This document shows, in pieces, positions 1-16,666 of a DNA stretch of 64,000 nt; the first letter of the stretch is position 1; each line of letters starts with the position of its first letter. The DNA comes from Octopus sinensis (taxonomy: Eukaryota): assembly GCF_006345805.1 (NCBI RefSeq), contig NC_043011.1, forward strand, positions 21,712,464 through 21,776,463. Reading direction: 5' to 3'. The notes under the pieces were generated by a model. The model was given only the letters and a program-made list of their open reading frames with translations. It was not told the DNA's origin and made no database searches. A program made the translations under genes and the position numbers.

Positions 1-791
1 AGTGGTGATGCTGGGCTTCGTATTTTTTTCATACCTTCGATGGTTACTGAGATAACCTACTACAATCATAATCTTGTGTTTATGAATGAGATAGGAAGGG
101 TTGATACATGAATAAGGAAGGAAGGAAGGGGGTGGTGTCATACTTGATAGTGTGATGATGAAAATTGTACGCTGAAAAAAATAAATGAAACAGCTTTTAA
201 AATCTGTGTGAATATATGTGTGTGTATGTGAATATGTGTGTGTGTGTGTGTGCAATTGAAGTGGGATGGTTGGGGTATGTGAATGTGTGTGAGTGTGTGT
301 CTGCATGCACAGTGGAAGTGTGATGGTTAACATTCAATGCTGAAAAGAATAATCGAACAGCATTTTAACTCTGTGTATTTGATATGTTTCACTTGAGTAA
401 AATCTGTTCTTTATAAAGGTACGTGTCTGTTTTTTTGTTGCTATAAAGTAATTTCTTTGGTATTTCTCGACCAAATTTTATTTAGCGTCATTACTATTAA
501 ACTTATGCATTTCTAATCAATTTGAAGATACTTGCTATCGAGTTGCAGATTTTTTACAATGCATTGGGTGACTATTTGCTTTATTTCTCAGGCAAAATTT
601 ACAACTTAAAATAAAAAATAAAATTATTATTTCATCCAAAAATTGATGAGCTTTGTTTTTAGTGATGACTTGAAATGGCAAATATTTTTTCTAACTGTAT
701 TTGCTTGAAAAAAAATAGACTTTTCTTTATATTTAGCAATTCTTTATACTTACTTTTACGATGTGCCTAAATATAAACCATCATTATAGAA

Positions 792-986
792 CAGTGTTTA
801 TCAACCTTTTTCGCAATTCAGCTCCCCTGTGTTGATGAAAAATTTAATTCAGCTTCTCATGTATCTGAGATAAACCAGCCGGCCCACAAAAAATCTGACA
901 AAGTGGGGTGAAGTCAGGAAATTTTCATACAGCTGGCGGCTCCAGTCGAAACAGGGGACCCAAAATGATAAGGTTGAGAAACACTG
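792..986. mobile_element. hAT-type MITE
   Basis: TIRs CAGTGTTTATCAACCTT / AAGGTTGAGAAACACTG; imperfect 8-bp TSD TTATAGAA / TTACAGAT. Confidence 0.7.
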
Positions 987-1063
987 TTACAGATTATGCC
1001 TAACCGAAAACAATCACAGCCACATCATCCAAACAGACCAGATGAAACCGGGCTTAGCTGCTA

Positions 1064-1064
<1 letters not shown>

Positions 1065-1125
<61 letters not shown>

Positions 1126-1249
1126 GTATATATATACATACATATATACACACATATATATACATATATACACACACACATATATATATATATACATATA
1201 TAAATACATTTATATACATATATGGATACATACATATATATATATATAC

Positions 1250-1325
<76 letters not shown>

Positions 1326-1326
1326 C

Positions 1327-1363
<37 letters not shown>

Positions 1364-1521
1364 CATATATATACATATAATATACATATATATACATATA
1401 TATACATATAATATACATACATTCATATATACACACATATATATACATATATACACACACACACATATATATATATACATATATAAATACATTTATATAC
1501 ATATATGGATACATACATATA

Positions 1522-1559
<38 letters not shown>

Positions 1560-1712
1560 CATATATATACATATAATATACATATATATATACATATAAT
1601 ATACATATATATATATATAGAGATAGATAGATAGATACATATATATATACAAATATATATACATATATATAGAGACACACAGACAGACAGATATCTACAC
1701 ACATACATATAT
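1065..1712. repeat. Compound (TA)n/(CATA)n/(TAGA)n microsatellite block
   Basis: Directly visible; source of the Y/I/M/V pseudo-ORFs. Confidence 0.95.
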
Positions 1713-2324
1713 CATTGCTATTATACAAAACTGTCCTAAGTCCAAAACGTTGCTTTTTGAGAAAAACAAAAGTTTCACCATTCCATTTCATTTTACATTG
1801 CTCACTTTATTGTTAATATATCCAAAAAGTACAATGTAATGCAAAGCAGTCATTTCAGAAACATTGGAAAACATTTTGGTAGTACTTTTTCTTCCACGGC
1901 ATCATTAATTTTTAGTTCAATTTTGTTTCTTGGCCTTACTAATTTTGCAAAAAAAAACAAAACCTTAAAACTTGCAACATACTAATCTACTGAAAAAAGG
2001 ATTTTGCTTAATAGCACGCTCAAAGCATTATTGATGAATTATGAGCAATTGCAAATGAATTAGCTGATAAGCATACAATGTATAACAAAGTTTAATTTGA
2101 AGTGAACACGTATCATTAGTCAGGAAAGCACCAAATAAGCAAACTTCAAGTAAGGCCAATATCTCCATACACTGCAAGAATTCACAATTTTCATCTCAAA
2201 ATGCAAAGAATCTAACAACAACACCATAATAACAGTCAAGGTTCAAACCCTTTGAGATATTTATGATGTCATGCAAAGCTTAATGCTAAAAATTTTCCAA
2301 AATAACCTTACTTATTCTGTTCTT

Positions 2325-4193
2325 CATTCATACAGGTGACTTGTTTTAAACTTTGGAATAGCAAATTTTTGACATGTGTTTAATAAATCTTTCATTTTGC
2401 TTATTTGGATGGGCTGGGAAGCCTCTTTGTTTATAAGTTTATATTGGATGCTTTTAATTCTTTTAAATGTCACATTTAGTGGCACAGGCTAATTCAAAGC
2501 AGATCAACTGTACAAAACTTCCCCTTTCTGTAACTCATAATTTGCTTTTTGGAAACTTTTGCTGTTCCCTTTCTGGACACTGTCTAACTTATAACATCTG
2601 CAAAATCATAAATTTGTGATTGGTCCAATTCTGTGACATAGTAGCTCTTTTTCTTTGAAGCTGATTTAATGAGCATGTACCACTGTTCAGGAATAAACAC
2701 GTCTAGGTGCTTTGTTACACATTCACTCACAGAGTGGACAGAATCGTTTTTATTTCAGACTCAAAGAAATAGTGATTAATTACTTTGATGTTCTTTGCTT
2801 CTATGTTTATGAAAGCATGAAACAAAGCCAGAATGTTTCAGTTACAGTTTTGTCCTGGGCATGCATCACTAAAGAAGTTAACTCCTCTCGCTCCATTTGC
2901 ATCCCATTATTTCAGCATTTGGAACAAGCAACTGCCAATTTCATTACTACCTTGACCAGATACTGTTTCATTCCAGACAAAACAAAGTAACTTCATCATT
3001 AGTTAAATCATTATGTCGAGAGTTTTTGAGAATCATGAAATAATGAGACTTCAGATTTTGGAGAAGGAAGAGCTTTTTGCAAGTCAAATACAGCTGTGAC
3101 TTTGGTATTGTCAATTTTCTTGCTTCAAAGTGGTTTTAATTTCACAATTTTCTTCTGCCTTTTCACAATGCACTTCAAATTTTTCTGCTTCTTTTTCTTG
3201 TTCTTCAATATTTAGATTTCGAAACTTTTCACAGGTTTCGCACCGGTCCTTTTGGGGACAATGAAAACTCAAGTTCATTGACTGAAAAGTTTGCCAGTAT
3301 ATTGTGTAGCTCAAGGGCTGTGTTTCCTTTTCCTTACATACTTCCTTATACATGTCATACATTTTTGACAAGGTTAATTCTGAAGAGAGACTCAGTAAGT
3401 TGCTTGAAGACCTACAATAATGACTTGGAACTTGTAGAAGTGATAAAATATGCTGACGAAGCTCTTTTTTGCGATGTTTCATCTGCTTATCATTTCTCTT
3501 TGTTTTTCCACGATTATCATCTTCTACCACTCCATTTGCACCTTTTTTTAAAGCAGTTGTTACTGTGGTTTCTGAAATTGAAAGTGTGTTAAGAAAAAAT
3601 ATTTTGCAGACTTCCACTTCAACATCATCGATGCAAAAACAATATTTCAAGCTTGAATTTCTTCTGGAATTATCACTTTTAGTTCTTTTTCTTTCTTTGT
3701 TGTGTTTTGAAACACAGTTGATAATAAACTGTCGTTGCTTATTTATATCTCCTAACTCCCAGTAAACAGTGAACAAGGTCTTTCTTCTTTGTTCAGAAAT
3801 TTTTGTGTCACATTTTAGTCGTTTACAATCACAGCTTTTTTTCAACATTTTAGCTGGGAATTTTTGCGTAGTGCCTATACAACTTAATCCACTATTCCTT
3901 CTCTTTTTGTTTTCTGATCTTGTAAATTCTTTTTGTCTTTTACGACCTCTTTTAGCTCTGACTGAAATCTGTGAGTTATCAACAGGTATACATTCCTTAT
4001 TCAATGGGGCATGAAGCAATTGAGGTACATCGTTTTCACCTGTGCTTATATCATCAGAGCAATTTCGTGATTTCATGATGTCAGGTTCATAAGGATGATT
4101 AATCACATGTTCCGAACTATTAACATCCGAGTCACTTGAGTCATCTTCCTTCACGTTTTCGGCAGCAACATTTACACTAATTTCTGTAGCCAT
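2325..4193 (-). pseudogene. Decayed cut-and-paste DDD transposase, Sola-like
   Basis: ORF 3111..4193 has CDCKRLKC, YWELGD..QRQFI, VCKIFFLNTLSIS, D.RG, SHYCR, SF..P.KDRCETC. Frameshifted continuation below 3111 gives VFDLQKALPSP, WNETVSGQGSNEIGSCL, FSDACPGQN, FIPEQW, KMKDL. Superfamily name is from motif recall. Confidence 0.7.
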
Positions 4194-4437
4194 TGCAAAA
4201 CTCTACCACTCGCAATAAAAATCTAAAGAGAAAGAAACATAACACAGTCAGTCCTTGTTAAATGAATAGTAGATGACTGGTTCAATTAAATTAGGCTTTA
4301 GTGTTTCAAAACAATAACATCCAAACTTACATTTGTTAAAAAAGCAATAAGGCCACCTATAGCTAAATGTTTAGGCCTGTGTGTGTGAGATGTTTCAGTT
4401 GCAAACCTATATATATATACACACACATACATGGCGA

Positions 4438-4760
4438 GGACCCCTTTGGTCATGACTGACCATGGGATTGCACCTAGAAAGTTACCCTCCCAGGCACAAG
4501 TCCAGGCAAGGTTGTTTTTATGGAAGACCAGCAGTTGCCCATGTATACTGGCCTCCCCTCTCCATGCAACCAGTGTTATCCATGGGAAAGGCAAGGGCCG
4601 ATGCAGCTTGGCACCTGTGACATCGCAAGTCATTTCTACAACTGAGTGAACTGGAGCAACGTGAAATAAAGTGTCTTGCTCAAGAACACAAACACGTAGC
4701 CCAGTCTAGGATTCAAACTCACAACCTCGCGATCATAAGCTCAGCGCTCTAACCACTAAA
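4438..4760 (-). mobile_element. SINE-like dispersed repeat (family D; further copies ~36330-36655, ~39560-39795, ~56880-57200)
   Basis: Shared GACCCCTTTGGTCATGA.TGACCATGGGATTGCACCTAGAAAG...AAAGTGTCTTGCTCAAGAACACA...GGATTCAAACTC sequence in four places. Confidence 0.75.
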
Positions 4761-4785
4761 CATATTTATATGTATATAAATATAC

Positions 4786-4823
<38 letters not shown>

Positions 4824-5000
4824 TACATATAAATACATATATCAAAGTAAGGTGATTATGAAATTGTATGGATAACACCGTACTAAATTCTGGTGCCTCA
4901 ACTTAAGTACCATATTCATCTGAATATAAATATACATATATACATACATATAAACATACATATATATATATATAAATACATACATATATATAAATACATA

Positions 5001-5345
5001 CATCATCATCGTTTAACGTCCATTCTCCATGCTAGCATGGGTTGGACGGTTCGACTGGGGATCTGAAAAGCCAGAAGGCTGCACCAGGCCCAGTCTGATC
5101 TGGCAATGCTTCTACAGCTGGATGCCCTTCCTAACGCCAACCACTCCGTGAGTGTAGTGGGTGCTTTTTATGTGCCACCTGCACAGGTGCCAGGCGAGGC
5201 TGGCATCGGCCACGGTCGGATTGGTGCATTTTACGTGCCACCGGCACGGAAGCAAGTCGAGGCGACACTGGCTTAGGCCACGATTCGGATGGTGCTTTTT
5301 ACGTGCCACCGACACAGAAGCCAGTCGAGGCAGCGCTGGCACGCT
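5001..5345 (-). mobile_element. SINE-like repeat (family B) with (GAT)n tail; further copies ~18260-18580, 40775-41250, 53722-53965, 57220-57510, 60090-60430
   Basis: CATCATCATCGTTTAACGTCC...CCATGCTAGCATGGGTTGGACGG...GGATGCCCTTCCTAACGCCAACCACTCCG plus internal GGCACGTAAAAAGCACC subrepeats. Confidence 0.85.
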
Positions 5346-5499
5346 AGAGTTGAACTAGGGTCAGCTGATGAAGGGGATTTTTCCTTGTGTAGTTTGTCTT
5401 GTACTCTGTTTTTCTGTTGTAAAAAAGTGGTTTGTTCCATGCTTGTTTTTCCGTTTTCGTTTCTCGTTGAGTTCTATGTCTAGTTGTGGTGTCCTGTAC

Positions 5500-6389
5500 T
5501 CACGTATATATATTTATATATGCATGTATATATACATGTAGATGTAGGTACGTACATATATGTATGTATGTATGCATATATTTTATTTATTACACTTATT
5601 GTATGACAGCGCCCTCGCGTCGATTCGATTCGTTCTTATTCTCCAAGTACTGTTTTATATATATATATATATATACACACACATACATATATACATACAT
5701 ACATATAAACATACATATATATATATATATACATACATATAAACATACATATATATATACATACATATAAACATACATATATATATACTACATACATATA
5801 AACACACATATATATATACATACATATATATATATATATACATATATACATACATATATAATATATACATATATACACATATATATATATACACATATAT
5901 ATACACATATATATACACATATATATACACATATATATACACATATATACATATATATATACACATATATACATACACATATATACATATACACATATAT
6001 ATATATACACATATATACATATATATACACATATATACATATATATACACATATATATATACATATATATATACACATATATATATACATATATTATACA
6101 CATATATATACACACATATATACACATATACATACATATAAACATACTTATACATATAAACATACATATAAACATACTTATACATATAAACATACATATA
6201 CATATATATGTAATATATATATATATATCATCATCATCATCATTTAGCGTCTGTTTTCCATGCTAGCATGGGTTGGACGGTTCAACTGGGGTCTATGTAT
6301 ACATATACATATGTATATATATATAGATATATATATATTTGTATATATATAGATATATATATATGTGTATATATATATACATATATATT

Positions 6390-6427
<38 letters not shown>

Positions 6428-6726
6428 TACATATATACATATAGACACATATATACATATAGAAATATATATACATATGTATATATATATATATACATAC
6501 ATGCATATATATATATATATACATATACATCCATCCATCCATACATATATATATATACATAAATATACATACATATGTATATATACATACATATACCTAT
6601 ATATACATATATATACACACACATGTATATATACATATATATATACATATGTATGTGTATATACACACACGCATATATATATATAATATAACACACAATA
6701 TAATGTATATATATCCACATATATAC

Positions 6727-6770
<44 letters not shown>
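5500..6770. repeat. Long compound TA/CA microsatellite region
   Basis: Directly visible; interrupted by a short SINE tail fragment at ~6230-6295. Confidence 0.95.
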
Positions 6771-6772
<2 letters not shown>

Positions 6773-6868
6773 ATCAATATAGGGGGCAAGGAAAATTTTG
6801 TAGAATTTATGCCCACCACGGCCCAGCGGGAAAAAAATTAAATAGTCATAGACCATTTTAAGTTCACA

Positions 6869-7119
6869 TAACATTAAGGAACGGCCATAATAGGCCATTC
6901 ACCCACTAGAAATAACAGCCAAAGCTTCTACCGCAAATAAAGATTAATTCCGTAAACAGGAGAAATTAAAAACGGTATACCGGTATACCGTACAAGAAAT
7001 ATAGGGTAAATTTTTTTTAATTTTCTCCTGTTTACGGAATTAATCTTTATTTGCGTAGAAGCTTTGGCTGTTATTTCTAGTGGGTTTGAATGGCCTATTA
7101 TGGCCGTCCTTAATTGTTA
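6869..7119. repeat. ~100-bp inverted repeat with central 20-bp perfect palindrome
   Basis: Arms ~6869-6972 and ~7014-7119 are near-exact reverse complements; ACGGTATACCGGTATACCGT at 6972-6991. Confidence 0.9.
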
Positions 7120-7599
7120 ATATAATATATAGATATATATATATATACTATATATATAATATATATATATATACATTAGCATATACATACTGACCAAGTA
7201 AAATTGTAAGGTACTGCACAAGTGGAATATATATGAGAAGATTTGAAAAGCAATTAAAAATGTTTATTCACTTTGTTATCAGAAAAGTATCAAAATACAG
7301 ATATACATTCTTTGATAATAATAAAAAAAATGTTAAAAACAGTTTACAAGAAAGTATTTAAGAAAGTAATCAGAACGGGACTCCAAAATGTATTTTGAGT
7401 TCAATAAAAATCATGTTTTTTTGGTAGTAATCTTTACATTTATAAGGTAATATTCTTTACATTTATTCTTGGTTTTAGGTATATCCGTATCTAATATTAT
7501 TATATTGTTCTATTAAAACTACATTTAATTATCTTCTCATAATTGTTTAAGATTACAAACTGCAAGGGGTGGTATCTGTTCAAATATTTTTCATTTTAT

Positions 7600-8500
7600 T
7601 ATACGTAAAGCTATTTTTATGTCAGCATTTTATTCCCCTCTCTTCTGTGCTGTTCAGTAATACTTCTTTCGACTGGAGTATTTTCATAAACTCAGTAGTG
7701 CATAACAAGCACATTTTATTACCTATTCTATATGACTTTACTCTACTAATGATATTCCAATTCAGGGTATATTCTATTTTTTCAGATTTCAATTCCCATA
7801 CATAGACCTGTTGAATTACTTAATTTGGGATTTTTAAAGGAGTGATAATGCTGGGAATTTCTTCTTTTAATTTCATTCACTGTGGATCCTATATATTCTT
7901 TTTTCTTCTTATTATTATCATTAGATGCTACAGTACATTTATAAATTACATTATCAAGGTTGCAATTATTATTAAGCCTACATTTTGATTTATCTTTATA
8001 TGTGCATTTATTTAGTATAAGGTTGTTTTTTGTTTGTTATATTTCTTCCATAGCTATTATTAATATTAGTTAAATTGTTATTATAGAATTTATTTAATTT
8101 GACGTTTATAGAGGATATAATATTACTAACATTTCTTGTTGTCGAATATCCCACCCTCATAGTTTTTTTTTTTTTTTTGAGAATATTTTCAAATACTCTT
8201 TATTCTTTTTAAAGGATATTTTAATTATTTTCAGAATTTCTTTAATTAATAATTTGGTTTGGACCCCATAAGGGATAATTAACCATATTATTTCCTTATG
8301 TTTTTTATTATTAATATTACTATTATTATTGTTCTTTGTCTTTGTATTCTTCATGGGTATATAATAATAATGTTTATTTCCATTCAAATTCTTTTTGGTA
8401 TTATCCTTACTATGATCATTTTTATTAATATTATTTTTATTTATACTTATATTTATCTTTATTTCTTTCCTTATATTCTTTATTATTATCTTTGTTATTA
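7600..8500 (-). mobile_element. Penelope-like retroelement remnant (linker + GIY-YIG endonuclease)
   Basis: Minus-strand translation gives IIWLIIPY...ILKIIKISF...KIF, CTYKDKSKCRLNNNCNLDNVIYKCTV...EYIGS, WELK..KIEYTLNWNII, CLLCTTE, LLN; stops and frameshifts present. Confidence 0.75.
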
Positions 8501-8639
8501 CCTCTATAGTTATTATCTTTGTTAATACCTCTATAGTTAGTATGAGGACATGCGTAAGCTTGCAAGAAATGAAGCTAGTATGCTCTACTGGATGTGTAAT
8601 GTCAGTGTGCATACATAACAGAGTGTAAACGCCCTCAGA

Positions 8640-9290
8640 GAAAAGTTGGACATAAGAAGCATCAGATGTGGTGTACAAAAGATAATTGCGCTAGTATAGT
8701 CATGTGTTGCGTATGGATGAGGACAGCTGTGTGAAAAGGTGTCACACCCTTAACAGTGGAGGGAACATGTGGAAGAGGTAGACCCAGGAAGACCTGGGAT
8801 GAGGTGATGAAGCACAACCTTTAAATGTTAGGCCTCACAGAGGTAATGACAAGTAACCAAGACCTTTGGAGATATACTGTTCTTAAGAAGGCCAGGCAAG
8901 CCAAGTGAGACTGTAACCATGGCCTATGCCAGTGCAGCATAACCAGTCTATCTAAGAGTACCCTTCAATCATTGGACAATAATCTGTGCTTGACAAGACC
9001 TGTTGAGTCAAGCGAAATAATTGTCATGGCTGATGCCAGTACCACCTGACTAGCACCTGTGCCAGTGGCACATAAAAAGCTCCATTCAAGTGTGGTTGAT
9101 GCCAGTGCTGCCTGACCGGTCCCATGCCGGTGGTATGTAAAAAGCATCATTCGAGTATGGCTGTTGCTAGTAAAACGCACCCAGTACACTCTCGGAGTGG
9201 TTGGCATTAGGAAGGGCATCCAGCTGCAGAAACCTTACCAGTTCAGATTGGAGCCTAATGCAGCCTTCTGGCTTGCCAGTCCCTAGTCAA
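8640..9290 (+). mobile_element. RTE-type LINE 3' remnant running into a family-B-like repeat
   Basis: HVLRMDEDSCVKRC...GRGRPRKTWDEV motif typical of RTE ORF C-termini. Confidence 0.65.
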
Positions 9291-9299
9291 AGGTGACTA

Positions 9300-10420
9300 T
9301 GAGAAAAACAAGCCAGTAGATTTCAAAAACTGACCTTAGGCTTTATTAATAGACATTGCAAAGCAGAGACGCACTGGGAATTGTGTTCATTTGAACTCAA
9401 ATGTCATGTCCGTTGGTTCGATTGGAATTCTTGGGATGAAAGCCTCTTCCCCAGAGGCACATACATTGATGATGGTAGCTTATGTCACATTAGGTGGAAA
9501 TGTCTTCACTATCAACCTTGTCCCATTGCATAATTTAGGAAGATCTAAATTTCTTTGAAGCATTATTGGAACTGCTACCTTCAGAAAAAAGTTTATGTGG
9601 AGGAGCTCCAAGTGGCTCAAGAGAATTAAGGAACTCTGTTGGGTAACAGACAGCTTGATTTTCATCAAGGACAGAATCAACTGATTTGTACTTCTTAATG
9701 ACTGATGGAATCTTATTCATTAATTCATGGTTAATCCTTGCTACTGTCTCATTTTTTGGAGCAAGAATTGCCTTTTCATACAACCATTTATGTGAATTAT
9801 AATTATTACTTAAGTCTGGAAATATCCTGTTCTTCAATTCAGCTGGGAAATTCACCATGATAGCAATATGAACCAAACTGATATCATAATTCCCATCGAA
9901 TGGTACTTTCCCATTTCCTAATTGGAGGAGCCAGGTTGAAAAATATTTTGCACATTGGTCCCCATGTAATAAAACTTGCACATCAGTATTGAAGGAAAAT
10001 TTCACTACTTTATTCCATAGGTGTGAAAACTTAATGCATGCTTTTATTTCATCAGATCTTGTTCATCTCGGAATGACTGGTAATGTCTGTCTTAAGTCTC
10101 CTGATAAAACTAATGTAACTCCTCCCATAGATTTATTATTGCCTCTGATATCCTGTAAGGTCTTACCATTGCACCTCTATGATGAACCCGAATCTTTGCT
10201 TATGTTACAAATTGGACTGTCATTGGTGACCAGGTTTAGTGGTAATTTAAAAGCAGAATGAGCTGTTTGTCCTTCTGGGAGAATGGTGGAAGCAAAGCCA
10301 GACAATGGTACGACAACTGCAATTCTTTTTTTGTTACCTTACCTTGGAAAGAAGTTATGTTACAAATGTTTTACCTGTGCCACCAGGAGCATCAAGAAAG
10401 AAAATTCCTCTGCTTTTTCT
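9300..10420 (-). mobile_element. Helitron PIF1-type helicase remnant
   Basis: FFLDAPGGTGKTF (Walker A), TAHSAFKLPL, LSGDLRQTLPVI, WLLQLGNGK, AILAPKN, YPTEFLNSL, IMLQRNLD.PKLCNGTRL, FIPRI; multiple frameshifts. Confidence 0.9.
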
Positions 10421-10943
10421 GTGGAACGCTGCATGCACGCATACACACACACACTTACAGATACATATACATACAGTATCAAACATAAAATGAAATGGGT
10501 GTGTATTAGAGAAAGAGAGAGAGAGAGAGAGAGCAAGTGACGGGGCATGTTGTCATGTATACATACATACATAAATAGGCATACATCTTTCTTGTATGTG
10601 TGTGTGTGTGTGTGAGAGAGAAAGAGAGAGAGTGCCACTTAAATATCACTCTCTCTCTCTCTCTCATACACAAACATGCACACATACATAGAAAAAAGAT
10701 GTATGCATATGTATTTATGTAAGTATAATTGACAACATACCCTTTCGCTCTCACACACACAGACACACACATACATAAATGTATACAAACAAACATACAT
10801 ACAAAAACACGCGTGTGCATGTGTGACTGACTACAAATACATAGAGCTGAACATGGAGTGCAAAGAGAACAATAAATAAAGATTTTTTACAGAAATTAAC
10901 GAAGTGTGCAAGCTCAGAACGAAATCAAACCTGGAGTGTGTGT

Positions 10944-11020
<77 letters not shown>

Positions 11021-11158
11021 TGAGAGAGAACATTGCAAACAATGAATGAAATAAACATGGATTGAAAAAATTGTATAAATAAAAGCACGTTAAAAAGTAT
11101 CTTGTAGCAAATATTTAAATTTGTGAACTTCTTATGAAAACAAAACATTCGTACTACA

Positions 11159-11550
11159 GGCACGAGAGTGGCTGTGTGGTAAGTAGCTTGCTTACCAACC
11201 ACATGGTTCCGGGTTCAGTCCCACTGCGTGGCACCTTGGGCAAGTGTCTTCTACTATAGCCTCGGCCCAACCAAAGCCTTGTGAGTGAATTTGGTAGGCA
11301 GAAACTGAAAGAAGCCCGTCGTATATATATGTGTGTGTGTGTGTGTGTGAATTTGTGTCTGTGTTTGTCCCCCCAACAAAGCTTGACAACCGATGGTGGT
11401 GTGTTTACGTCCCCGTAACTTAGCAGTTCAGCAAAAGAGGCTGATAGAATAAGTACTAGGCTTACGAAAAAATAAATCCTGGTATCAATTTGCTCGACTA
11501 AAAGCAGTCAAAATGGCCGCAGTCAAAATGACTGAAACAAGTAAAAGAGA
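11159..11550 (+). mobile_element. tRNA-derived SINE (family A)
   Basis: GTGGCTGTGTGGTAAG..GGTTCAGTCCC A/B-box-like head, CCTTGGGCAAGTGTCTTCTACTATAGC core, GACTGAAACAAGTAAAAGAG tail; many copies in the window. Confidence 0.85.
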
Positions 11551-11679
11551 ATATATAAACACACACATCAACCTCATTTAACATCCACTTCCATGTTGGG
11601 ATGGATTGGACGGTGCAGAAGGTAACACCAAGCTCCACTATCTGTTTTGGCTCCCAGAATACAAACACACATGCATATA

Positions 11680-11731
11680 TGCACATATATATATATATGT
11701 ATATATATATATATGTATGTATGTATGTGTA

Positions 11732-11770
<39 letters not shown>

Positions 11771-12110
11771 ATATATATATTCCAAAATTCAACTACAAGT
11801 GGACTGTTGGTGATTTTTTCCTCCTCCTTTTCTTATGCTTTTCATATGACACCATCACCAGATCAAAAAGCATTGGAGATGATATAAAAATCTAAAAAAA
11901 TTTTCCAGTCTCCTGTTTTTGTGTGTATGTATATGTGTATGTATGTGTGTATGTATGTGTGTGTATGTATGTGTGTATGTATGTATGTGTCTATGTATGT
12001 ATGTGTGTATGTATGTATGTGTGTATGTATGTATGTGTGTATGTATGTATGTATGTATGTGCATATGTATGTATGTATGTGTATATGTATGTATGTGTGT
12101 ATGTGTATAT
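11680..12110. repeat. (TA)n/(TG)n/(TATG)n microsatellites
   Basis: Directly visible. Confidence 0.9.
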
Positions 12111-12376
12111 TTTTGTTTGTTTTTGTCCCCCACCTACCATTTGACAACTGATGTTGGTTTGTTTATATTCCTGTAACTTAGTGGTTCAGCAGAAGAATCC
12201 AATAGAATAAGTACAAAGCTTTAAAAGTAAGTAATGTTGTCAATTTATTCAACTAAAACCCTTCCAGTCGGTGCTCCAGCATTGCCACAGTCTAATGACT
12301 GAAACAAATAAAGAGTTGAAAGATAAAATATCATTTTCGCTGTCATTCACTCTAATTACCTCGGAGAATTATTTTC

Positions 12377-12678
12377 TTTTACTCTTATTCTATCGGTCTC
12401 TTTTGCCGAACCGCTAAGTGACGGGGACGTAAACACACCAGCATCGGTTGTCAAGCAATGCTAGTGGGACAAACACAGACACACAAACACACATACATAT
12501 ATATACATATATATGACAGGCTTCTTTCAGTTTCCGTCTACCAAATCCACTCACAAGGCATTGGTCGGCCCGGGGCTATAGCAGAAGACACTTGCCCAAG
12601 GTGCCACGCAGTGGGACTGAACTCGGAACCATGTGGTTGGTTAGCAAGCTACTTACCACACAGCCACTCCTGCGCCTA
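12377..12678 (-). mobile_element. tRNA-derived SINE (family A)
   Basis: Reverse-complement copy of the 11159 element. Confidence 0.85.
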
Positions 12679-12720
12679 TTATACTGTTCTTCGTTTAAAA
12701 TAATTTTTCAAAAATCTTAC

Positions 12721-12821
12721 CAGTTCTATCACTAATGCTGTTTGTTACGCAGGCTTCAGGAACATCACGCTGAATCTTTGTGCGAAGCTCATCCACCCGG
12801 TCCTCATAGCCTCAGGAATTG
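12721..12821 (-). CDS. Rdx selenoprotein coding exon 2 with in-frame TGA (putative Sec)
   Basis: Acceptor TTTTGTAG|C, donor G|GTAAGA; 101 nt; C AAT TCC TGA GGC TAT = (C)NSUGY. Confidence 0.85.
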
Positions 12822-15800
12822 CTACAAAACATATATAAAAAAAAAAATCATGTACTGTTTCAGAATCAACATTAGAAATCTGTCACAAAATTAAAAGTTA
12901 GAGAAGATATTTAGGAGGCGGGGGGGACAAGATGTCATGTTTGCCAAAGTGGGAAGGGAGATGTCGATTCATAGTCTCTCTCTCTCTTTTACTTGTTTCA
13001 GTCATTTGACTGCGGCCATGCTGGAGCACGACCTTTAATCGAGCAACTCGACCCCGGGACTTATTCTTTTGTAAGCCCAGTACTTATTCTATCGGTCTCT
13101 TTTGCCGAACAGCTAAGTAACGGGGACATAAACACACCAGCATCGGTTGTCAAGCAATGCTAGGGGGACAAACACAGACACACAAACACACACATGCATA
13201 TATATATATATATATACATATATACGACGGGCTTCTTTCAGTTTCCGTCTACCAAATCCACTCACAAGGCTTTGGTTGGCCCGAGGCTATAGTAGAAGAC
13301 ACTTGCCCAAGATGCCACGTAGTGGGACTGAACCCAGTACAATGTGGTTGGTAAACAAGCTACTTACCACACAGCCACTCCTGCGCCTGTCAACATTTCA
13401 CTGCTCTTAGTAGGGACACATAGTTGTTTGTCAACAACAGCTATTGGCGGTGTATTCTTCGTTTATTACTATTATTTTATGACATCGTTCGTGCGTTTGT
13501 ACTAGTTTTAGATTTAAGGTGTTAGGGTTAGGGTTTTGGTTTTAGTGTTAGGGTTGTCATAAATAACAGTGACAAACGAAAAATACACCGCCGGAAGTTT
13601 TTGTTGACAAACAATGGCAGTAATTTTATTCAGCTGAATACATGTCATTGATTGGTTGAAATTACCGAAATAGGACTACTTTAACGTGAAATTACTTCGT
13701 AAATATAAGTTTTGGATCTTTTCGGTTTGACTGGCAGTTTTTTCTAGCGGTGTCATATGAAATTGTCACCCATAATTATGACCCTAGTATCGATCTATTG
13801 CATTTCAATCTGTTTTAGGTTTAGGGTTAGGGTTGGTGGGGAAGGGTAGCTTTTTTTTCTTCAGAAATGTAAATGAACCCAATCTGTTTCTTAAACGAGG
13901 GACATTTTCATACAGCACAGAATGTTTTCACCTCAATAGACGTCATTGATTGGTTGAAATTGCAGAAATTGAAGAAAAAAAACAATAAATATCTTACAAA
14001 GTATAGAATTTTCTCAATAAAGCCAAGAGAAAAAGATGTTTTATAAACACATTCTACCAGTATACGAAGTTTAAAAGTGTTTAGTTACGTGGAAATTATT
14101 TTTAAAAACTGCCGTTCAAACCGAAAAGATCCTAAGTTTTTCTCAAACATGCTAAGAGTAAAAGATGTTTTACATGAGACATTCTACCAGTGTCCAAAGT
14201 TTGAAAGTGTTTAGTTACAAAAAATTATTTTTTTAATCTGTAGGTCAAAAGGTAAAGATCCATCTTGCCTTCCCCGAAGCCGAAATAAGGGTTTGTGTCG
14301 AAAAACAAAAATTTTTTTATGGGTGGTTTTAAGGGGGTGGGTACGGGTGGAAGTCTTGCTCGGTATACTTGTAAGCATTAACCGAATGAAAAGCGAGTCG
14401 ACCTCGGCGGAATTTGAACTCAGTACGTAAAGTTAAACAACTATATTTTGACCAAATATTTTAGGTCAAACTAATTTAGGAAATATTGACAGTGGAAATG
14501 CCAACAAAGTGTGCCTAAGTGAAACAGTTTTGGAACGCATGCAACGAAAATTACAAATATTTTAACTCATTTCATAAATTATCGTTTTAGACACTTAACG
14601 TTCCCACCAACATACGAAATGTTGAAAATTTTCTGGGTCCCTCCCCGGTAAGGAGAGGGTTATATAATCGGCCTAACTACAGGGCGTAACAAATATCAGA
14701 AAATCAAAAAAAAAATGTGTGTAATAGGTGTAAAACAACTTCCTATGAACGAATATGAAAAAAAAAATTCGCGCACGCGAAAGGGGGGTGGGGGAGAGGC
14801 CTCGGAAAATTCACATCGGGAAGTTCCGAAAGCGTCTGAGGGGCTGACCCGGGCACCAAAACAAAAAAAAAATAGTGTAATATGTGTAAAACAACTTGCT
14901 CTAAACGAATATGAAAAAAAAAATGCGCTCTCGAGAAAGAGGGGTGGGGGAGAGGCCTCGGAATATTTATATCGAGAATTTCCGAAAGCGTCTGAACCGG
15001 GCACAAAAACAAAACAAAAACAGCGTAATAGGTGTAAAACAACTTGCTCTAAACGACTATCATGAAAAAAATGCGCGCTCGCGAAAGGGGGGTGGGGGAG
15101 AGGCTTCGGAAATTTCACATCTTCAGTCCACGGCCTTTAAACTAAGAAAAAATAGTGTAATTGGTGTAAAACTACTGGTTAATATAAGGCGTAACAAATA
15201 TCAGAAAATCAAAAAAAAAATGTGTGTAATAGGTGTAAAACAACTTCCTATGAACGAATATGAAAAAAAAAATTCGCGCACGCGAAAGGGGGGTTGTTAC
15301 GCCTTATATTAACCGATTCCTGTCCCCCTCCCCGATTTTGGATGATCATAACTTTCAGAAAAATGGATATTTTTTAATGAAATTCTTTACAATTATACTT
15401 CAGACTATGTAGATTCCGAAGACATAGGAATTGGGGGTGGAGGAAACAATTGGGGGCTATTTTTGAGAAGCGTTCCCCACTCGTGGGTGTTTCGAAATAA
15501 GTCGTCCATATTTGTTTTATTTTCACCGTTTTGTGCATCCGTAGATTTCTACAGAAGCAACAAACAGGCAATGAAGGTAAAGGAAGCCCTCACCAGAAAA
15601 CTCGCTATGCTAAAAATAACAGCTAACGGTCTGGTACACAGGAATATGTTAGGACGACTTATCTGTTGCATACGAATTTTTTTTCGCACTTTAAGTAAAT
15701 TTCCCAGGTAAACGTGGTAAACGTTTCTAATAGAAAGGCAGAAGACACCAGAAGCAAAAATAAGGAATATACACAGTTAAATATATAAATGTATTGTTAC

Positions 15801-16666
15801 ATAATCTCTATAATAAACATGATATTAAATGGAATAATTCCCCGTTTGAACCTTTTTTAATTACATATATATGAGTGTGTTTGTGTGGTAGAATGCATGC
15901 ACAAAGGCACAGATTTCTGTAGTTATGCCAAAACCCAATGTATCCTTTATTTATGACGATATAGTAATATTTTGGATGGTATTAATTCTTGGAATCCTCC
16001 AGAGAATTAAAACAGAGACAACGTGTTATTGTTGCAAAATAAGCTCCCTAACAGATGACATCTTTATATATAAAAGTCAAGTTGTGTGTCTGTCTCCTAC
16101 GATTTAGATTCCTAACTACTCCCACATTTTTCGGAGCAGTGTAACCAAAAGCGGGTATCTTATAGTCGTGATTCATATCGAGCCCTTCTAGGTATTAGCG
16201 CACGTCTACAATGAGTCTATGATTTTAAAAATAATTTACCATAATTTTTTTCCATTTTAATGCATTTTTTTCGCTATTATATAAGGGAAGTAATTCTCTA
16301 AAAATGTCTACGATGAGTCAACGATTTAAAAAGAAATTTACCATCATTTTTTTTCCATTTTTAATGCATTTTTTTGCTATAACTCTCTAAAAATGCTTAT
16401 ATAGTTATTTCCCTTACAAACCCGAGCAACGCCGGGCGATACTGCTAGTCTTTTTATAAAACAAAAGTGACAGGCAGTAGTAGTGCTGCGTATATGCATT
16501 CCTTCTGAAATTATTAACAAAACGGGGAAATCAACAATAAATAACGAAGTGGGATTCTTAATAAGAATCGGTCACCACGTTTAAAGAAATATATAATTCT
16601 TATTTACCAGAATTCAATGTGCACATTTAAACCCGAGGAAAATCCACATCCTTCGTGTTCTGTCAT
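12721..16666 (-). CDS. Rdx-family selenoprotein (SelW2/MIEN1-like), 5' part: complement(join(12721..12821,16608..16666)); 3' exons not located
   Basis: Two GT-AG exons with matching phases translate to MTEHEGCGFSSGLNVHIEFC-NS-U(TGA 12812-12814)-GYEDRVDELRTKIQRDVPEACVTNSISDRT(G). The V-x-I-E-F-C-x-x-U-G-Y motif, following helix and ..TG exon end match the thioredoxin-like Rdx family (SelW VVYCGAUGY, MIEN1 IVVEYCEPCGF). Confidence 0.85.
12985..13388 (-). mobile_element. tRNA-derived SINE (family A), full length; similar copies 20428-20820(+), 38920-39300(-), 43893-44287(-), 57760-58120(-), 59565-59925(-), 62405-62768(+)
   Basis: Near-identical shared sequence among copies. Confidence 0.85.
13714..14132. 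mobile_element. MITE with GG..CC termini and 8-bp TSD (Merlin-like), nested in a related element (~13400-14261)
   Basis: TIRs GGATCTTTTCGGTTTGA / TCAAACCGAAAAGATCC; exact TSD TAAGTTTT at 13706-13713 and 14133-14140; internal TTAGGG tract. Confidence 0.85.
14682..15314. repeat. ~150-bp tandem subrepeat array ending in a small inverted-repeat element (15177-15314)
   Basis: GTGTAAAACAACTT..AACGAATATGAAAAAAAA..GCGAAAGGGGGGTGGGGGAGAGGC unit in 3-4 copies; GGTTAATATAAGGCGTAAC / GTTACGCCTTATATTAACC inverted termini. Confidence 0.75.
16061..16448 (+). mobile_element. Non-autonomous Helitron in the first intron of the Rdx gene
   Basis: A|TC 5' start (TCTTTATATATAAAAG..GTGTGTCTGTC), subterminal hairpin CCCGAGCAACGCCGGG, CTAG|T 3' end, no TSD. 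Confidence 0.8.
16608..16666 (-). CDS. Rdx selenoprotein coding exon 1 (MTEHEGCGFSSGLNVHIEF+TG)
   Basis: ATG at 16666-16664; donor TG|GTAAAT; 59 nt, ends phase 2 inside the Cys codon. Confidence 0.8.

Follow-up and report, generated by a model that had tools for sequence, protein, structure and literature searches.

A probable hidden selenoprotein gene of the SELENOW2/MIEN1 group, with a predicted prenyl anchor, in a four-gene octopus cluster

The window, 64,000 nucleotides of the Octopus sinensis genome (G000:C15:21712464-21776463), carries the first two coding exons of a gene, hereafter gene A, that extends past window base 1 (Table 1). Exon 1 contributes 59 nt of coding sequence counted from the ATG and ends at the donor GTAAAT, and exon 2 is bounded by the acceptor TTTTGTAG, preceded by a T-rich tract, and by the donor GTAAGA. 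When joined, the two exons are compatible in phase and hold a single stop in frame, a TGA, which completes a C-N-S-U motif directly after a hydrophobic strand. The original prediction, made from the letters of the window, proposed two phase-compatible GT-AG exons giving LNVHIEFC-N-S-TGA, and the canonical sites and fitting phases bear it out. Singly, exons 1 and 2 have no match in Pfam. A pattern for the end of exon 1 and another for exon 2 each occur four times in 394 kb (both strands), always in gene A or one of the three paralogs described below; these patterns were derived from the four genes themselves, so the control shows only that stray matches are absent.

Table 1. Coordinates of gene A features, given as window positions or, beyond the window, as contig positions.
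Feature	Position	Strand	Description
Exon 1, coding part	16608..16666	-	ATG to first two bases of the CxxU Cys codon; encodes strand 1
Intron 1	12822..16607	-	GT-AG, phase 2, 3,786 nt
Exon 2	12721..12821	-	101 nt; carries the in-frame UGA and helix 1
In-frame TGA	12812..12814	-	Codon 23; predicted selenocysteine of C-N-S-U
Intron 2, window part	1..12720	-	Phase 1; whole intron 17,083 nt; microsatellites, transposon remnants
Exon 3	G000:C15:21708024-21708100	-	77 nt
Exon 4, coding part	G000:C15:21704345-21704428	-	CaaX box CTIV and TAA
SECIS-like element	G000:C15:21703332-21703392 (L013:869-929)	-	

The rest of the gene lies outside the window. Of 16 candidates in a Pfam Rdx search of the genome, 11 were matches, and four of these lie just past the window's low end. 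The resulting model has four exons, separated by introns of 3,786, 17,083 and 3,595 nt, and encodes 106 residues with one internal TGA and a terminal C-T-I-V-stop. Within the window itself, scanning for an exon 3 motif gave one poor candidate, which we dismissed. The next intron had been expected to exceed 12 kb and does so. It had also been described as packed with Helitron, Penelope-like and Sola remnants; a putative PIF1-helicase remnant is seen (E 0.0011, below the Pfam cut-off), and the Sola-like and Penelope-like ORFs have no matching Pfam family.

Splicing is visible in contigs of sequencing runs. We aligned contigs of 4 of 24 runs, all four classed as RNA by guess, to the interval L013:500-5900; 14 likely RNA runs contained 0.24-0.38 of the query words, none of them labelled RNA on record. 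Three of the four aligned runs, from three studies (X1, X13 and X2), contain the joint 1965/5561, which is exactly the GT-AG intron between exons 3 and 4. This joint is absent from the contigs of X5, one of which continues from exon 3 as a 221-nt loose end; the 30 letters shown agree with the last bases of exon 2, and a length of 221 nt would accommodate both first exons plus some 60 nt of 5′ UTR. Two of the three splice joints of gene A are seen in contigs, that between exons 2 and 3 in one run. A 1,174-nt contig of X1 is unbroken over positions 925-1965, which comprise exon 4 and the entire UTR as far as the 5′ arm of the hairpin described below; none of the contig pieces listed for the four runs crosses the whole hairpin. 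The joint between exons 1 and 2 is supported indirectly, by full-length relatives, by a retrocopy and by a gene model. The relatives P0128 (86% identical to gene A), P0130 (60%) and P0131 (62%), which also contain the segment matching exon 1, come from contigs of about 1 kb and are uninterrupted across the joint; paralog C has an intronless copy, on C4, in which exons 1-3 are joined across the TGA; and the O. vulgaris model P0183 appears to share the joint, in another frame.

A pattern scan located, 961 nt downstream of the gene A stop, a hairpin whose upper helix has 10 pairs and which carries AUGA, unpaired AAA and GA; an AUUAAA stands 94 nt past the AUGA. The hairpin matches the full Rfam model SECIS_1 at 32 bits, short of the gathering score of 35, with an E-value of 4e-4, and folds at -36.9 kcal/mol (z -8.5), a stability equalled by none of 200 shuffles. 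Scanned over 394 kb on both strands, the SECIS pattern gave 22 loose candidates, of which five fold at -20 kcal/mol or better; four of these five sit behind the four paralogs, each on the correct strand. The hairpins of paralogs C and D score 27.6 and 21.4, both under the gathering score, and that of B is not among the Rfam matches listed in the narrow scans that recovered A, C and D. A scan of 60 kb showed no SECIS among the 150 of 247 Rfam matches listed, which are microsatellite-driven noise. Across the four hairpins 93.5% of helix cells are paired, as against 32-51% in slid controls, and covariation among them is not above shuffles (190 of 500). A repeat origin of the hairpin DNA was ruled out, its three genome matches all lying within the cluster. 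By structure the gene A element has the AUGA/AA/GA core of a SECIS together with both helices, and it lies in the gene's own 3′ UTR, with a score below gathering and a contig that reaches its 5′ arm only. The genome also carries a tRNA-Sec(UCA) on C24 and a multi-exon SepSecS on C2, both large contigs. The absence of spliced reads, downstream exons or a SECIS had been named in the original prediction as counting against the gene; exons 3 and 4 were found beyond the window, the exon 3/4 and exon 2/3 joints are seen in contigs, and a SECIS-like element stands near the end of the last exon.

Family placement is consistent across methods. Against Pfam PF10262 (cut-off 22.6), exon 3 by itself reaches 22.7 bits and P0128 reaches 54.5; P0128 also scores 63.3 against TIGR02174 (cut-off 34.2). 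These values exceed the cut-offs of the Rdx family. A structure predicted for P0128, standing in for gene A, has pLDDT 79 and the element order E14-20, H26-39, E44-50, E56-60, E63-67, H77-88, which is the Rdx topology. Its top Foldseek matches are MIEN1 and SelW-related proteins, with MIEN1 at rank 1 and SelW at rank 22, and by profile the best PDB match is human MIEN1 (2LJK, 1.3e-14; mouse SelW, 1.3e-9). Named sequence matches are labelled ‘migration and invasion enhancer 1’. Profile, Pfam/TIGR02174 and fold matches agree with the SelW2/MIEN1-like call made originally, and we assign gene A to the SELENOW2/MIEN1 group as a Sec-form member, nearer to MIEN1/SELENOW2 than to SELENOW1. The UGA stands on the redox residue of the family, at which 36 of 39 named insect relatives and human MIEN1 have Cys, and the SECIS-like hairpin is present. 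These observations uphold the earlier proposal of a Sec-encoding gene, and we conclude that gene A is very probably a hidden selenoprotein gene in which the UGA codes for selenocysteine.

Gene A shares a stretch of about 110 kb with three further paralogs, B (minus strand), C (plus strand) and D (minus strand). In each, the internal exons measure 101 and 77 nt with phases as in A, a TGA occupies the CxxU motif, the frame is otherwise intact and a homologous hairpin follows; a search of 394 kb turned up no fifth copy. Protein identity between the paralogs is 36-51%, depending on the alignment, yet the UGA is retained in all four, and the retrocopy has a TGA at the equivalent position. Gene A is the copy nearest to the full-length relatives (60-86% identity, against 33-52% for B, C and D). 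B ends in CTIL, and C and D lack a CaaX box: each has an earlier stop, at different codons, behind which remnants of the CaaX codons are still in frame. Assembly errors are an unlikely source of these stops, since the O. vulgaris models P0004 and P0045 terminate at the same residues as C and D. In a tree of 29 proteins (no vertebrate sequences) the backbone is unresolved and the four paralogs do not form a clade, with p-AU 0.32 for a test of a single clade, so that this tree neither establishes nor rules out a duplication specific to octopus. The CaaX box and the four-copy tandem cluster of Sec-coding genes had both been overlooked in the original prediction.

The public gene models tell a different story, in which the UGA would be a true stop, either in a transcribed pseudogene or ahead of a shortened protein with a downstream start. 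P0010 (B) and P0004 (C) start at a Met past the UGA, P0045 (D) has a different N-terminus, P0183 (A) is fused to the first exons of B and terminates at the UGA of B, and the retrocopy model P0005 terminates at its own UGA. RefSeq XP_029645637, an O. sinensis protein, agrees at every position with the C-terminal 78 residues of the paralog adjoining gene A; a named full-length gene A record was not found in protein database searches, which U-bearing records may escape, and phmmer with the retrocopy protein against 1.84 billion representatives gave six matches, three of them apparently unrelated repeat proteins. The SECIS scores under the Rfam cut-off would likewise suit a stop. We nevertheless regard a true stop as very improbable, because the UGA falls exactly on the redox residue in four diverged paralogs whose frames are otherwise intact and which have a hairpin each, because the sequence ahead of the UGA is conserved in relatives, and because gene A has no in-frame Met downstream of the UGA from which a shortened protein could start. 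The retrieved public models are wrong, as is typical for selenoproteins. Readthrough of the UGA as Cys, Trp or Arg, with no SECIS involved, is if anything a shade less probable than a true stop. It draws on the database translations of the full-length relatives (60-86% identical, ending in CIIL, CVIL and CTIL), which show W at the UGA position; this W is likely UGA read as Trp by a gene caller. The cluster mates of these relatives, P0011, P0032 and P0129, have gene models that begin at a Met past the position, which fits UGA handled under different code settings, and a SECIS-like hairpin and a tRNA-Sec are both present in the octopus.

A more serious competitor, though still an unlikely one, accepts the selenocysteine and doubts the anchor: gene A would encode a Sec-containing SELENOW2-type protein whose CaaX box is unused and which, like SELENOW, would carry out its redox role as a soluble protein of the cytosol. 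The final residue is Val rather than Leu, the tail is acidic and not polybasic, with no basic patch before the Cys, and paralogs C and D manage without the box. As a geranylgeranyl signal CTIV is less typical than CVIL, and a terminal Val is compatible with more than one type of prenyl group. The Cys at position -4 is nonetheless retained in A, in B, in close relatives and in 38 of 39 named insect relatives, which end in C-x-x-x, and human MIEN1 is reported to be geranylgeranylated at CVIL and membrane-anchored (PMC6738349). By analogy with the human protein, we think it probable that the CaaX box of gene A is in use.

Taken together, gene A is a spliced, four-exon gene of the SELENOW2/MIEN1 group in which a SECIS-like hairpin very likely directs selenocysteine to the UGA, giving a thioredoxin-like protein predicted to be prenylated. 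Following established selenoprotein biology, SBP2 would bind the gene A hairpin and eEFSec would bring Sec-tRNA to the UGA. Cys20 and Sec23 would then alternate between selenolate and selenenylsulfide, reducing or isomerising disulfides of partner proteins; the redox-active motif of MIEN1 is reported to operate at -225 mV (PMC3527542). If Cys103 is processed as in human MIEN1, it would be prenylated, trimmed and methylated, which would bring the protein to the cytosolic side of membranes. The gene A product would act as a membrane-tethered thiol/selenol redox regulator or switch. Paralogs C and D, which retain the UGA and the hairpin, would be soluble. For the cluster as a whole, we give roughly even weight to the reading in which all four genes are expressed and Sec-decoded, A and B as prenylated selenoproteins at the membrane and C and D as cytosolic forms that have lost the anchor. 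In that reading C and D lost their anchors through two separate early stops, the remnants of the CaaX codons being UTR fossils.

The locus represents neither a new recoding mechanism nor a new family: the family, its Sec form and its tandem duplication are all already known. What the analysis adds is a set of corrected structures for four genes of a cephalopod model genus, for which the public models retrieved start past the UGA, end there or fuse neighbours, together with the coexistence of a Sec motif and a CaaX tail in a protostome. This coexistence implies that the prenyl tail of the cancer-migration protein MIEN1 likely predates the change from Sec to Cys. The cluster is also a natural experiment, in which Sec is kept and the anchor is present or lost, on the substrates that this poorly understood family reduces and on its site of action. 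A CaaX ending is probably shared by fish Sec-MIEN1 proteins, and the combination of Sec and CaaX is probably widespread but little remarked. A literature search at the level of titles and abstracts found no description of a protein with both Sec and a prenyl anchor or of this octopus cluster; likewise, searches for octopus together with MIEN1 and for a prenylated selenoprotein found no papers, in a literature made up mostly of open-access articles.

According to one phylogenetic study, SELENOW2 and MIEN1 are sister groups, MIEN1 arose in jawed vertebrates, with a CxxC motif in amniotes and Sec-containing forms in fish, and the invertebrate genes of the SELENOW2/MIEN1 group included there all fall on the SELENOW2 branch (PMC13134290). 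Multiple copies are on record: tandem SelW2a/b genes are reported in zebrafish (PMC3316567), three SelW2 genes in a planarian (PMC3828610), and several SelW genes in the limpet Lottia and six in planarian, along with other invertebrate selenoprotein clusters (PMC3473315, PMC3828610). SELENOW2/SelW2 of fish, frog and invertebrates shares with the octopus genes the Rdx fold, the CxxU motif after strand 1 and the SECIS; the octopus differs in its set of four tandem genes, which share 36-51% identity and of which two carry a CaaX box and two lack it. We know of no CaaX tail in SELENOW (SelW1; PDB 2NPB), which is likewise a CxxU Rdx selenoprotein of similar size but scores below MIEN1 by profile and by fold. 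Insect ‘MIEN1’, such as CG15456 of Drosophila busckii (P0192), shares the domain, has a comparable motif behind its last strand and carries a terminal CaaX-like box, but is a Cys form, with 30-38% identity to gene A in the three compared. Human MIEN1 (C35, C17orf37, Rdx12; PDB 2LJK) is the best match in both sequence and fold, with a redox motif in the same place and a C-terminal CaaX box; where gene A has CxxU and CTIV, MIEN1 has CxxC and CVIL.

Two copies of paralog C, one of the tandem neighbours of the selenocysteine-type Rdx gene (gene A), lie on other contigs of the octopus genome. In the intronless copy, exons 1 to 3 are fused across the TGA and a TA repeat truncates the sequence, which is likely a processed pseudogene; in the O. 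vulgaris protein model P0005, this copy has been merged with another gene, and the model terminates at the copy's UGA. The second processed copy carries TAC in place of the TAG stop of paralog C, followed by V-C-TGA, and because of this an older paralog C may have ended nearer the old CaaX box, with a UGA within that CaaX. Were an earlier start or exon in use in paralog B, a further tandem neighbour, a 24-nt tandem repeat there would add a Ser-rich repeat N-terminus to the protein.

Features in and around the Rdx genes, with copies and related genes elsewhere in the assembly
Feature	Location	Strand	Details
Intronless copy of paralog C	L004:1495-1722 = G000:C4:69459644-69459814	minus	92% identity, 282 nt
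Second processed copy of paralog C	L052 = G000:C10:50378768-50378917	minus	exon 3, exon 4, UTR; 92%, 599 nt
24-nt tandem repeat	L015 ~6864-7000 = G000:C15 ~21689330-21689450	minus	in frame with, and 5' of, the ATG chosen for paralog B
Stop-to-stop ORF, gene A intron 2	window 3111-4202	minus	363 aa; cysteine-rich, transposase-like by eye
PIF1 helicase match, gene A intron 2	window 9535-10062	minus	weak; E 0.0011, under cut-off
Tandem repeat, gene A intron 1	window 14009-14261		129 nt unit, 2 copies
Tandem repeat, gene A intron 1	window 14700-15121		148 nt unit, 2.8 copies
Compact Rdx-family genes	L002, L003, L006 (contigs C9495, C7757, C8694)		
Second compact SepSecS	C8594		

Within intron 2 of gene A, the helicase match is consistent with a Helitron remnant, and a Pfam search with the long ORF gave no fitting family.

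A single tRNA-Sec gene is usual in most animals; here there are at least three high-scoring matches (L046, L047 and L048), two on C24 and one on C6303, and a fourth match on C3. The assembly also holds a second SepSecS, compact and with very short gaps, and compact Rdx-family genes; one of these carries TGA in its CxxU motif and is interrupted by an apparent intron some 26 nt long. The high-numbered contigs that carry these compact genes may come from a co-assembled parasite, for example a dicyemid; the structure of the compact genes differs from that of the octopus genes.
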